Part shown: piece by piece, positions 1,173 through 5,455 of the stretch
Position numbering within the stretch: position 1 is the stretch's first letter
Layout of the letters: every line of letters begins with the position of its first letter
Assembly (NCBI GenBank): GCA_965198225.1
Contig: CBDAOY010000004.1
Location: 352,001 to 416,000, forward strand
Direction: 5' to 3'
DNA length: 64,000 nt
DNA from: Terriglobia bacterium
GTDB lineage: Bacteria > Acidobacteriota > Terriglobia > 20CM-2-55-15
Translations under genes and position numbers: made by a program
Notes under the pieces: model-generated
The model's database searches: none
What the model was told of the DNA's origin: nothing
What the model saw: the letters and a program-made list of their open reading frames with translations, nothing else

Positions 1173-2896
1173 ATGCCAACGACGCCCAGTGAAGGCTTTT
1201 CCGGAACGTTCAATTTGGATTCCAAGATTCTGCCTCCCGACAGTTCGGGGTCCGTCACAATCGGTGCGGAAACGGCCGCCGACGTCCTCGAAGCAATCCT
1301 CAAGAACAAGCCGTTCCCCGACCGACAGATCGATCTGGCCGGCGTCGCGGTGCACGCCGAGGCCGGGCGCGACATCAAGTTCAATGCGGGCAAGGGGGCT
1401 GTCAGGTTCGGAGGAACCGTCGAAGCGCGCACCCGGATGGGGATCTTCGGTGAAGGGACAGCGGTTCTGAAGGAATTGGACCTGGAAGACGCCGGCAAGA
1501 TCAACCTCGAACTCGCCGACCAGGATGGAGTGCGCTACCTGCTCTTGCTTGCCGGATACGGAGTCGAAGGAAAAGTGAACGGGTCGCACCCGATAGGCGT
1601 CCTGGGATCGGTTACGTTTGGAGGATCGGGCCAACGGTCGCGTCTGTACGCTGTTGTCCATCGATTTGCTGCCGACGATCCCGCACGGGATGCCATAGAG
1701 AACACCGTGAAGAGCTGGCGGCTGCCTCGCCATGTCGATGATCCGGACGACCTGCGGCCGGGGACGATGTTGGTCGGCGAAGTAGAGGGTTCCCTCGCCC
1801 TGAACCTCGGCGCCCAGCTGGGCTTCGACTTTAACTTCGTCCGGCAGACCGAAGCATTCGGTTTGACCGGTGACGTAGGTCTGAAGCTTGAGACCGGCGT
1901 GAGAGTTGCGCTCGGTTTTGAGGCCAGCGGCCGCTACCTGGTGGTCCTGGATCGCGAATCGATGGGATCCAATACAGCCATCGTGAGGTTGCAGCTCTAC
2001 AAACTTTCCAAGAAGGGCTGGAGCTTCGGCCTCAACCTATCGGCGCACGCGCAGGGCGACGTCGGCATCGCACCCGAAAGAGTGGACGACCTGGTCAAGG
2101 CAGTCTTCGGAGTCCACGGTCAACAGATCGTGGAGAACCTCCAGGCGATCGAAAAGTGGACTGATCCCAACACGGATCTTTCTGACAAGGTTGCGGGCCT
2201 GACGGGCGACACCGCGCTGGAGTTGCTGCACCACACCACCGGTATCGATCCGAAAGCGGAGTTTGATAGGGCCAAAGCCGTGTTCACGAAAGCGATAAAT
2301 CATTGGAAGTCGTTGCCGGACAAGGTCGCTGCGACAGCCTGGAAGTTGATCGAAGAGCTGGCCGACAACGAGCAGTATTTCAAAGATTTCCAATCGACCC
2401 TGACACTGCTCGCGACCGAGGACGAACAGACTCGGAAGGACGAGCTGAAGAAGATTCTCGCGAGGGTGGACTTCGACGACATCCCGGCCGGGAAGCTTCT
2501 CAACGCTGCCGCTGAAAGGGGCGTCCCGGCCCTCCTGGACCGCAGCGGGGACCTGCGGAAGGTTGCCGCGACGATACTGGACGTCCTGAACGGAGGGATC
2601 ATCAGAAGGCTGCAGGGATTCGTGAACGAGAAACTCAATCTTGATGACGTTATGAAAGTGGCAACCGAGGCCGACTTCGACGAGCTCCATGACTGGCTGA
2701 AGAGCAAGCTCTCGGCGTTCCTCGACGAGGAGCTCGAGTTTGAGAAGCTGGACGAGATCAAAGACGCCATCAACGCGGTCCTCGAGAAACGCCAGGAGCT
2801 TTACGAGAAGGCGCTGCAGGCACTGGAACGTCGCTACGATTTCGAGTTCGGCTACAACTACCAGAAGAGTCCCACGAGAACGGCTTTGCTCGACGT
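1173..2896 (+). pseudogene. Large hypothetical protein, 3'-truncated by IS5 insertion
   Basis: ORF with GGAG RBS and host-like codon usage. Its last ~18 codons (ALLHGSGWRWNSPFPKR) are read from the IS5 terminal repeat. Confidence 0.8.
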
Positions 2897-3378
2897 AGCG
2901 TTGTTGCATGGATCGGGGTGGAGATGGAATTCGCCCTTTCCCAAGCGGTAGCGTCAGGCGATGCGTTCGAACACAGGCCGTCCGAGTGCGGTCATTGTGT
3001 TCAGAACTTTCTGGCCGACCTTGATTTCCGTGATCTGCCTGGAGAAGCTGCGGGATTTGAGCTTGGGGCCGATGACGCTCTTCCAACGGCCGATCTGCGT
3101 TTCTATCCGGCTGCGCTGGTTGTACCCTGTGGCCGCCTGCCAGGCCATACGGCCATTGCTGCGGATCTGGGCAATATGGCGATCCCGAACGGTTGGGCCC
3201 CGCGCCGATTGCGGTCGGATCACTGCGTTCTTTGGCGGCGGTATAACCACATCCAGGGTCTCCCCATACCGTTCCCTCAGCAGATCCCGTGTAGACGCCC
3301 CATCATAGGCGCCGTCAGCCAGAAAGCCCGTGACCGGGGCAGCCAGTTGATCCAGGAGCCCGTATCTGGACTCCTCCT

Positions 3379-3666
3379 GTCAAGTAGGCGCAGCTGTCCC
3401 ATATCCTTTTCCCGAAGATTCTTTTCAGCATCCTGATATTTGATTTTCGAGTTGAGTGACAGATCGACTGCATCCGTATCTTCGGCCTCTCGAATGGAAC
3501 GTTTGAGTTCCGGGCCATGATGAAATTCGCGCGCGGGGTGCCAACCGGGTAAACGGCCTCCAGGGGCCACGGCTTCTCCGGCGTTTCCCCGCGCCGGTCT
3601 GACCGGTACGTCATCAACTCGAACGTCGTCGCAGTCTACTGAAAGGATGTTCCTACAGTCATGGTG
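3379..3666 (-). ncRNA. Putative bridge/seekRNA of the IS1111-type element
   Basis: Non-coding region 3' of tnp, with nested stems (3466-3471/3631-3636 and 3531-3538/3587-3594) and loop segments matching the insertion site and the element ends. Confidence 0.7.
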
Positions 3667-4701
3667 TCAGGCCGCCCGTCGGTCAGCCTCGTACGCCGTG
3701 TCCTGTGTCCAGACGGCCCAAACCGTGCGGGCCAGTTTGTTGGCTAAAGCAACCGTGGCCGTGTTGTGCCCGCGGAGTGTGTGGAGACGGAGACCCCATT
3801 TCTGCAGAGCCGAAGGTTGCGCCCCTTTTCGATGCGCACTCCATAGCAGAGTGCGGCCACCGTGTATGAGCAGCATCCGCAGGTAGACGTTGCCTTGTTT
3901 GCTGATCGCTCCCAGCCGACGCCGGTTTCCGCTCGAACGCTCACGCGGGGTGAGTCCCAGATAACTGGCAAAGTGGCGACAGGATCGAAACCGTCGGGGG
4001 TCACCGACAAAACCTACCATCGCCGTGGAAGTCAACAGCCCGATTCCAGGGATCGAGCGCAGACGGGCCACCTCGGGCATCTGACGGGCCAGGGCTTCCA
4101 ACTCCCGCTCCACCGATTGAATGCGTGCCTCCAGCTCGCGGATTTCGGTGCACACTTCCGAGAACATGACGCGTACGGTCATGGGGATCTCAACATCCGC
4201 ATCTTCGATCAACCCCATGACTCCGGGCACCAGCCGCCGGGCTCCCGTCGGCAGCACGAGCCCAAACTCTCCCAGCAGCCCCCGCACCATGTTGATGCGC
4301 GCCGTCCGGGTCCGCATCCAGGTCGACCGGATGCGGTGCAGGGCGGTGAGTTGCTGTTGCGCCACCGTCTTAATGGGTACCGCCCGAATATCGGCATTCC
4401 GGTGGGCCTCCAGCAACCCTTTTACATCCGCCCGATCCGTCTTACTCCTCGGTACGTAGGGCCGGACATACTGCGGTGAAATCAGTACCACTGTGTGCCC
4501 CAGTTTCTGGATCTCTCGTCCCCAGTGATGGGCGGCACTGCAGGCTTCCATCACGACCGTCGCCAGCTCCTGATTCGCAAAAAACGACAAGAACTTTCCC
4601 CGGCTTAAACGGTATGTCTTCGTCATCTGCCCGGGGCGGTCGGAAATCCCAATCTCGAAAACATTCTTTGCCAGATCCACTGCGATCGTTTTACTCTTCA
4701 T
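3667..4701 (-). CDS. IS110-family DEDD transposase/recombinase
   Basis: IAVDLAKNVF, VVMEAC, KTDRAD, SIPGIG, YLGLTPRERSSG, ISKQGNVYLRMLL, VALANKLAR motifs; intact 344 aa. Confidence 0.97.
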   Translation of the reverse strand: MKSKTIAVDLAKNVFEIGISDRPGQMTKTYRLSRGKFLSFFANQELATVVMEACSAAHHWGREIQKLGHTVVLISPQYVRPYVPRSKTDRADVKGLLEAHRNADIRAVPIKTVAQQQLTALHRIRSTWMRTRTARINMVRGLLGEFGLVLPTGARRLVPGVMGLIEDADVEIPMTVRVMFSEVCTEIRELEARIQSVERELEALARQMPEVARLRSIPGIGLLTSTAMVGFVGDPRRFRSCRHFASYLGLTPRERSSGNRRRLGAISKQGNVYLRMLLIHGGRTLLWSAHRKGAQPSALQKWGLRLHTLRGHNTATVALANKLARTVWAVWTQDTAYEADRRAA

Positions 4702-5455
4702 CTCGGACTCCTTCTTGTTTACACGTCCTCGTGTTTAGCCCGCACCATCGCGAGGCTTCACAATGACTTTGGCACTACGATGCCGACTCAGTCATCAAGG
4801 AGGAGTCCATCCCATCAGGTAAGGCGGTGCTGTCTCCAGCGGCATCGTCAGTCAGATCGGCGCAAACAATCGCACCGCTGGCCAGGTCCAGTCCGAGGTG
4901 GAGTTTGCGCCAGCGGCGGCGTATTCCCTTGATTTTATGCTTCTGCGCGAGCCATTCCCCCTCGCCGAAGATCTTGAGGCCGGTACTGTCCACCACCAGA
5001 TGGACAGCCACAGACCCGGCTTGCCTCATCGCCTGAGCGATGTTCAAGCCGTTTGCGCGACGTGACAGTGTGGAGTAATCCGGCACCCGTATATCCAGCC
5101 CCATGAGCGTGCCGATGGATCCCATAAGTCCCTGCGTTTGCCGCAACGCAAGCCGATACGTCGTGCGCAGCGTCAGGCATGTATCGATCGCCAAATCCGA
5201 GTATCTCCACTGGCCACCCCGTGACGTGCGGCGCGGCGCGCTCCACACACTTTGAGCCTCTTCACTGACCCAGATCGTCAGATCACCCCGCTGGCGTAGG
5301 CTCTCGTTATATTCCGCCCAGTTGATCACCCGATACTGCGCCTTATCAAACTTGTGCCGGCGGGCTGCGTTGAACTTATGTGGCATCTAAGTTATCCCCG
5401 GTGTTGAAAAACACAATGATAAGACATCCTTCGGGATGATCCATGCAACAAGGTC

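Follow-up and report, generated by a model that had tools for sequence, protein, structure and literature searches.

The element and its host gene

The stretch of DNA analysed here, referred to as the window, comprises 64,000 nucleotides (nt) from a Terriglobia bacterium (assembly GCA_965198225.1, contig CBDAOY010000004.1, positions 352,001 to 416,000). At positions 3363-4817 it carries a 1455-bp insertion sequence that belongs to the IS1111 family, with the transposase on the minus strand, lodged inside an IS5-family transposase gene whose two parts lie on either side of it (Table 1). The ends of the element, its target, the match between guide segments and flanks, and the conserved helices of its RNA are direct results of this analysis. 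On these grounds it is very probable that 3363-4817 is an IS1111-family element whose DEDD transposase is directed to the target TTACC^CGG(G)CT (the caret marks the insertion point) by an RNA derived from the 304 nt that follow the gene.

Published criteria for IS1111 elements comprise a transposase of 330-350 amino acids (aa) with the motif GL-P----S(T)G, and inverted repeats of 7-17 bp that lie subterminally, leaving a short extension at each end. Herein, the transposase of 344 aa was found to match PF01548 (2.4e-08; 34.3 bits, cut-off 29) and PF02371 (5.9e-24), and its translation contains GLTPRERSSG, which fits GL-P----SG; S257 and G258 within it are invariant across seven relatives. The subterminal repeats are 12 bp long, and 304 nt of non-coding sequence lie downstream of the gene (3363-3666) as against 116 nt upstream (4702-4817). 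An earlier note on this DNA, made from the letters alone, had described an IS1111-type element with its RNA region downstream of tnp, and both attributions are borne out. A structure search with the transposase returned distant matches only, at about 1e-11, the structures being those of IS621 and ISCro4; the match to IS621 (8wt6, 3.8e-11) covers the C-terminal domain only. Judged from its sequence, the element is well preserved and probably active.

Deletion of 3363-4817 joins the two IS5 parts into a frame of 325 aa. Three uninterrupted paralogues are equally long and agree with it at 304-305 residues. Precise excision would thus restore the IS5 transposase, as the earlier note had proposed.

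Table 1. Positions of the element, its predicted RNA and the interrupted gene in the window
Feature	Position	Strand	Basis or remark
Insertion sequence	3363-4817	-	TGATGGG...CCAGATA in transposase sense; four identical copies, uninterrupted paralogues, contig joints
Transposase gene, 344 aa, DEDD/RuvC-like and IS110-family C-terminal domain	3667-4701	-	Open reading frame, Pfam
Left subterminal inverted repeat, 12 bp	4798-4809	.	Outward 8-nt terminal extension 4810-4817; conserved in relatives
Right subterminal inverted repeat, 12 bp	3367-3378	.	Perfect complement of 4798-4809; outward 4-nt extension 3363-3366
Target loop, whole	3531-3594	-	Closed by 8-bp stem (3587-3594 / 3531-3538) and 4-bp GCCG/UGGC stem (3579-3582 / 3540-3543)
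5' target guide GAGAAGCCG	3570-3578	-	Complementary to target top strand from CGG rightwards (CGGCTTCTC); variable, matched to right flanks
Conserved hairpin UGGCC-loop-GGCCG between the two guides	3554-3569	-	55/55 cells paired
3' target guide UUACCCGG	3545-3552	-	Identical to target top strand (TTACC^CGG)
Predicted long RNA domain, 178 nt	3446-3623	-	Closed by 10-bp helix 3614-3623 with 3446-3455
Predicted short RNA domain, 100 nt	3518-3617	-	Closed by UGAUGA (3612-3617) with UCAUCA (3518-3523); holds whole target loop
UUUCAUCA	3518-3525	-	Two possible partners: left end TGATGGGA (6 Watson-Crick pairs plus 2 G-U pairs) and RNA segment UGAUGA
Second-domain conserved hairpin	3484-3516	-	GGCC/GGCC and GGAAC/GUUCC, 100% and 98.2% of cells paired
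AGAUACGG	3474-3481	-	Equals right end AGATA and the CGG following it in the integrated state
TTGACA, candidate -35 box of a circle-only junction promoter	3378-3383	-	Sequence; by analogy with the published IS1111-type junction promoter
5' part of interrupted IS5-family transposase gene	4818-5386	-	Pfam PF13737, 2.3e-33 (4775-5386)
3' part of interrupted IS5-family transposase gene	2954-3362	-	Pfam PF01609 (2954-3361); joined frame 325 aa

Copies, empty sites and the ends of the element

Four copies of the stretch 3362-4816 are present in the genome, identical across all 1455 bases, which confirms the length given in the earlier note and the near-exact position of the element; one further relative in the same genome is 72% identical to that stretch. 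In addition, near-identical transposases (99.7-100%) occur in two other genomes. The four copies have three different flanks, two lying in IS5 paralogues and two in a second host repeat, the product of which is a reverse transcriptase carrying the maturase domain of group II introns (RVT_1, 1.7e-32; GIIM, 1.5e-12). Each of the two host repeats, IS5 and intron, is present in seven copies.

The uninterrupted copies of these repeats show where the element ends. At the occupied sites the sequence runs ...TTACCT, element, GG(G)CT..., so that the junction base is T in all four, whereas it is C in 10/10 uninterrupted paralogous sites, namely five IS5 copies reading GCCTTGCCCGGGCTCC and five intron copies reading CATTACCCGGCTT. 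Apart from the junction base, the flanks of two of these intron copies agree with those of an occupied copy to 99.6-100%. Furthermore, metagenome contigs of public sequencing runs join 3362 directly to 4818, skipping 3363-4817 with zero ambiguous letters, in three of the four runs (one contig in X15, two in X16, one in X3 and none in X1); a second joint among the contigs is that of the TTGCC paralogue. The true empty site is CCTTACC^CGGGCTCCTGG, and the target is TTACC^CGG(G)CT.

Accordingly, the ends placed at 3362 and 4816 in the earlier note are off by one base, and the empty site that it derived from the IS5 frame, CCTTACCTG^GGCTCCTGG, has T where the real site has C; because CCT and CCC both encode proline, either version of the empty site is in frame. 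The reading with ends at 3362-4816 would call for a target TTACCT^GG and a recombinase tolerating a C-A mismatch beside the crossover. It agrees with the TTACCT that precedes GATGGG at all four occupied sites, with the T that precedes GATG in 44 of 51 relative loci, and with the preservation of the IS5 frame under either version. It is nevertheless very unlikely in view of the C at every uninterrupted site, including the two whose flanks nearly or fully equal those of an occupied copy, and of the contig joints. Moreover, a T that stays constant across many unrelated targets is a better fit to a base of the element than to a base of the target. A scan for TTACCTGG(G)CT sites, built on the earlier empty site, became moot once the ends were corrected and was set aside.

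Several observations concern the host repeats themselves. Immediately to the right of the insertion point, the IS5 copy that hosts the insertion at locus L001 (genome C5:838647-840101 plus flanks) has GG, whereas GGG is found in the window copy and in copies of another genome (L030, L039); the IS5 frame at L001 would therefore stay broken after excision. This GG could be a real frameshift or an assembly homopolymer error. The intron target, in about seven copies, is represented by L002:98-1537 (minus strand) and genome C5:744258-746912, with an uninterrupted copy at C4:146915-148117, and at two places (L015, L016) the intron directly adjoins another IS110-family element with a transposase 37% identical. 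Next to the IS5 gene of the window, an open reading frame of 592 aa without a Pfam family (1173-2951, plus strand) ends 3 bases from the IS5 stop on the opposite strand. Its last residues may be derived from the IS5 end, so that the gene may have been truncated by the IS5 insertion.

The target loop and its two guides

On the minus strand of the downstream region, the motifs AGAAGCC (3571-3577), TTACCCGG (3545-3552), TTCATC (3519-3524) and AGATACG (3475-3481) are all present as the earlier note had listed them, together with the enclosing 8-bp stem (CCCCGCGC and GCGCGGGG on the plus strand) and the hairpin between the first two segments. In the proposed mechanism, an internal RNA loop closed by the 8-bp and GCCG/UGGC stems would bear two guides around the conserved hairpin. 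The guide GAGAAGCCG would pair with the top strand right of the insertion point, and UUACCCGG with the bottom strand left of it. The two guides overlap on CGG, with GAGAAGCCG placed 5' and UUACCCGG placed 3', as published for IS1111 seekRNAs, and together they would lead to insertion at TTACC^CGG(G)CT in one orientation and without target duplication. In the present genome, such sites were hit in an IS5 transposase gene (two copies) and in a group II intron (two copies).

The flanks collected from other copies agree with this scheme. The orientation is identical at five distinct insertion sites, three in this genome and two in others, all of which read TTACC^CGG(G)CT and match the guide segments, and no base is duplicated at the empty sites. 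The 3' guide UUACCCGG matches the target 8/8 at all five. Among unoccupied sites, the identical 8-mer is present at five uninterrupted intron sites, and five uninterrupted IS5 sites match at 7/8. The tolerated mismatch that had been noted for TTACCCGG (7/8) was found to be an artefact of the misplaced boundary, as the match is 8/8 against the real target. Mismatch tolerance thus survives for the 5' guide, which matches its real right sides at 6-7 of 10 positions, and falls away for the 3' guide. Among IS5 copies, the TTACC version is occupied in 2/2 cases and the TTGCC version in 0/5, the pattern that would be expected of a guide with one-base discrimination, though seven copies are few. In a genome-wide motif scan, just the five known loci bore both motifs. 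No perfect 15-base target site exists in the genome.

Two sets of public contigs differ from the element within this region. A contig from an RNA library (run X16, record 18; window 3325-3652) follows the element except for insertions and deletions at 3552, 3563, 3573 and 3578, which fall in or beside the guides and the hairpin loop; its probable source is a relative from the same community whose guides differ. Contigs of X1 and X3 join 3384 to 3579 or 3585, skipping 194-200 bases, with fewer than 30 letters on one side. Such a joint would delete the second domain along with half the target loop, and may be an artefact or a deleted derivative.

Guides and flanks change together among relatives

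In a search of 400 genomes of the class, with a close relative defined by an E value of 1e-90 or better, close relatives were found in 9 of the 33 other genomes of the same family and in none of the 366 genomes of the other 13 families. A relative in the same genome (74% protein identity) keeps every RNA stem and has exactly two segments changed, the guides. Compared with its own flanks, its 3' guide matches at 7/7 readable positions and its 5' guide at 7/10. The same holds among relatives at large, in which only the two target-guide segments of the RNA vary, in step with the flanks; the earlier proposal that the two stem-enclosed segments are target guides is thereby upheld.

By grouping the genome-derived elements into six target classes for permutation, it was found that the cognate assignment of the 5' guide scored best of 720 permutations, and that the score of the 3' guide was reached by 2 of 120. 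In the RNA alignment, the 3' guide of L034, L041, L049 and L050 reads TTTATCGG. A metagenome scan added 80 further loci at 54-77% identity, 69 of them with the RNA domain. Therein, 36 distinct 5' guides matched their own right flanks at 7.9 of 9 positions (5.1 when shuffled), and 40 distinct 3' guides matched their own left flanks at 4.0 of 5 (2.7 when shuffled); the observed value was reached in 0/2000 shuffles in either case. The lack of independence among the relatives makes the shuffle tests overstate significance, yet the direction of the match between guides and flanks is unambiguous.

Two relatives in this genome deserve separate mention. The 74% relative (L005, genome C4:92181-93569) ends in ...GGAGTCCAGA^GGAAAC, three bases short of the ...CCAGATA plus C of the family; this single-copy element, whose transposase frame is intact, may be immobile. 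A decayed relative lies at genome C5:757851-758325 (L009, L018, L020), where two C-terminal transposase fragments of 49-55% identity, one with a stop, precede a stretch 68% identical to the guide-RNA region. That stretch (C5:758163-758325) had been a candidate orphan guide RNA and was set aside, since its position beside the decayed fragments marks it as a remnant element.

Conserved structure of the RNA

Helix pairing was counted on an alignment of 11 distinct RNAs. The 8-bp stem of the target loop is paired in 96.6% of cells, with two pairs changed on both sides, while the GCCG/UGGC stem and the hairpin between the guides are paired in 100%, with no pair changed on both sides. In the second domain, the two helices are paired in 100% and 98.2% of cells, with zero and one such changes, respectively. 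Overall, 92.7-99% of cells are paired, a share that falls to 30-55% once the partners are shifted against each other by one to three columns. Two outer helices were found in addition. The 10-bp helix, present in the minimum-energy fold, is paired in 73.6% of cells, with three pairs changed on both sides, and the 6-bp helix UGAUGA/UCAUCA is paired in 66/66 cells, with one covarying pair (GC 7, AU 2, GU 2). These two helices are mutually exclusive and would close a long and a short form of the RNA, and by analogy with published seekRNAs both forms are plausible in this element.

Several results weigh against an RNA-guided element of this kind or weaken the case for it. The 5' guide GAGAAGCCG matches its real right sides only in part, as given above, and scores 5.6/9 on its own targets as against 6.0 on one non-cognate class. 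Eleven TTACCCGGCT sites in the genome are unoccupied, five of them in intron copies. The single-sequence fold of the non-coding region gives z = -1.73, with 2 of 100 shuffles folding as well, and the Rfam search of the RNA returned no family; a match to mir-191 at 21.5 bits fell short of the gathering score, 54, and was taken as chance. Scanning for promoters and terminators turned up a single weak promoter-like site, which lies within the RNA; no notable sigma-70-like promoter and no intrinsic terminator were found. The non-coding region is covered at low depth by contigs of two RNA libraries, which speaks for presence in the library and not for transcription, ends or strand.

Some of these points could be taken to mean that the guide-flank matches arose by chance and that the protein alone chooses the site. 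Short matches are indeed common: 8-mers of the AGATACGG kind are expected about once per 64 kb, and AGATACGG itself occurs six times in the window against 1.03 expected, including four occurrences outside the element (11069, 14846, 19728 and 56736) with no insertion-sequence features nearby. The single-sequence fold, likewise, is unexceptional. The family-wide match between guides and flanks, however, lifts the finding above chance where the evidence of a single sequence is weak. Chance is contradicted by the permutations of six classes and by the tests on 36 and 40 distinct guides; moreover, the positions at which the RNA varies are those of the guides, and published experiments on relatives speak for RNA guidance. 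A chance origin can therefore be regarded as extremely unlikely.

The second domain and its probable role in reading the element ends

The second domain of the RNA probably reads the element's own ends, the left through UUUCAUCA and the right through AGAUACGG, and this is the least secure step of the sequence-based interpretation. The 3' strands of both domains are built alike, with GAGGCCG, a short guide, CGR, one base and UG(G)C. On the right, AGATACGG is found at both 3360-3367 and 3474-3481, and the identity of AGATACG in the RNA with the other end (a second copy at 3361-3367) is as the earlier note had described it. AGATACG is kept in 11/11 genome relatives and in all metagenome rows but one, and the right-end GTCCAGATA is found in 50 of the 69 RNA-bearing metagenome loci when one mismatch is allowed, 49 of these being exact. 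On the left, 29 distinct metagenome combinations were compared, and in 20 of them left-end position 6 is paired with the third base of UUUCAUCA (shuffled mean 16.4; 0.25% of shuffles reach 20), and U occupies this base solely where the left end has A (7/7 combinations). One subfamily has UCCCAU, the exact complement of left-end bases 3-8. In addition, IS1111 bridge RNAs have been predicted in the literature to hold donor-binding bases in a multi-loop.

Against end reading by the second domain, three observations have to be set. Since AGAUACG and the right end are both invariant, covariation cannot test their pairing, for which one 7-8-nt identity is the basis. Within the RNA, UUUCAUCA pairs with its RNA partner in every cell of the 11 relatives (66/66), and in 18 of 21 metagenome combinations its third base has a pairing partner in the final base of the upstream UGAUGR, a value reached by 1.9% of shuffles. 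Finally, an 82-nt short seekRNA of ISEc11, with target matches only, was reported to be sufficient for transposition (PMC11187229), which calls for caution about a donor loop; in the same report, how the ends are recognised is described as unknown (PMC11187229). Of the earlier claim that the second loop reads the ends, the covariation of UUUCAUCA with the left end is thus retained, but UUUCAUCA covaries also with its RNA partner, and AGAUACG gives no covariation.

These observations can also be explained if UUUCAUCA does not guide to the left end but forms, together with UGAUGA, the RNA helix closing a short seekRNA of 100 nt, the protein recognises the ends through the subterminal repeats, and AGAUACGG is conserved for structure or protein binding. 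The complete pairing within the RNA with its one covarying pair, the 18 of 21 combinations and the sufficiency of the 82-nt ISEc11 seekRNA (PMC11187229) all agree with this explanation. So does the finding that, of 10 genome relatives with a known left end, just 7 have the same RNA base paired with it, and the CGR-N-UG(G)C end common to both 3' strands could be a protein-binding motif. The covariation of the third base with left-end position 6, the restriction of U to left ends with A, the UCCCAU subfamily and the multi-loop donor bases predicted for IS1111 bridge RNAs argue the other way, and the two pairings need not be mutually exclusive. Altogether, the helix-only explanation is considered possible rather than probable. 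Both pairings of UUUCAUCA are supported by sequence comparison, and the RNA may alternate between them.

Crossover and expression

The base at the left junction was T in 44, C in 5 and A in 1 of the 51 relatives, one locus having no readable upstream base; the base at the right junction is mostly C. The element brings a T to the left junction and leaves the C of the target at the right junction. The target core is CGG as against a deduced donor core TGA, and no shared core of the IS621 kind was seen, except for a CGA that is repeated at both junctions in those five relatives that have C before GATG. CGG closes each of the two 3' strands of the RNA. No circle junction was found among the contigs of the four public runs, and the donor core therefore remains an inference. 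When AGAUACGG is compared with the integrated right junction, 8/8 positions match, as against 6/8 with the circle junction expected from the ends. Furthermore, the RNA bears a copy of the left end (UGAUGR) that is able to pair with the left-end guide. These features would fit a crossover, in this clade, without a core shared by donor and target, in which AGAUACGG is written for the product, like a three-base 'handshake' guide, and the RNA could switch between two forms, 'seek' (closed, 100 nt) and 'bridge' (open, 178 nt). Such a mechanism is conceivable but rather doubtful.

By analogy with published relatives, the RNA would be made, bound by the transposase and needed for excision and insertion. 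If the ends were abutted, the candidate -35 box TTGACA would lie 18 nt from the left-end TGGGAT.

Comparison with known systems

RNAs of this kind, termed seekRNA or bridge RNA, were published in 2024, and guide RNAs have been predicted in 93% of IS1111 elements. The closest parallels are ISEc11, ISXne4 and other seekRNA elements of the IS1111 family (PMC11187229), which share with the present element a transposase of about 340 aa with GL-P----SG, subterminal inverted repeats, a long non-coding region downstream of the gene, and two overlapping target matches, of which the one complementary to the top strand lies 5'. Natural redirection between relatives that are about 72-77% identical, with stems kept and guides changed, was likewise described there (PMC11187229). 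The published long and short seekRNAs measure 145-170 and 70-100 nt, respectively (PMC11187229), as compared with the 178 and 100 nt predicted here. The present element differs in host lineage and in target, and it is known here from its sequence alone.

IS621 belongs to the same protein family (structure 8wt6). Its bridge RNA resembles the RNA described here in being one molecule with a target-reading part and, here probably, a donor-reading part; in each part, the 5' strand is complementary to the top strand on the right and the 3' strand is identical to the top strand on the left. The lengths are also close, at 177 nt for IS621 and about 178 nt here (Durrant et al., 2024, PMC11208160; Hiraizumi et al., 2026, PMC13626964). 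Unlike in IS621, the RNA lies downstream of the gene with the order of guides reversed, and the candidate donor bases are found around a multi-branch junction, not in a simple internal loop. Whereas IS621 has a CT core in both donor and target (PMC11208160; PMC13626964), no shared core is visible here, the target CGG standing against a deduced donor TGA.

In its choice of site, the element is comparable with other members of the group. Reportedly, IS4321/IS5075 and the IS1111/IS110 members that target repetitive extragenic palindromes (REP) also insert into repeated or mobile DNA in a site- and orientation-specific manner. The targets differ: here they are found in the coding sequence for an IS5 transposase and towards the 5' side of a group II intron, in its 5' part.

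Implications

In the annotation of this genome, the element accounts for the disruption of one IS5 gene and of two group II introns, and the correction of its boundaries carries a lesson for annotation, namely that the ends of such elements should be set by empty sites rather than by reading frames. RNA-guided recombinases of the IS110/IS1111 kind are under development for large DNA insertion, and the loosely matched 5' guide suggests that about 10 target bases suffice. The IS1111 branch is the less understood of the two: the structure search yielded only the IS621 and ISCro4 transposases, and the recognition of the ends is called unknown by the seekRNA authors. Against this background, the clade offers a natural case of one-base discrimination between paralogous targets (TTACC 2/2 versus TTGCC 0/5), as well as a natural series in which the scaffold is conserved and the ends are constant while at least 36 different guide sets occur.

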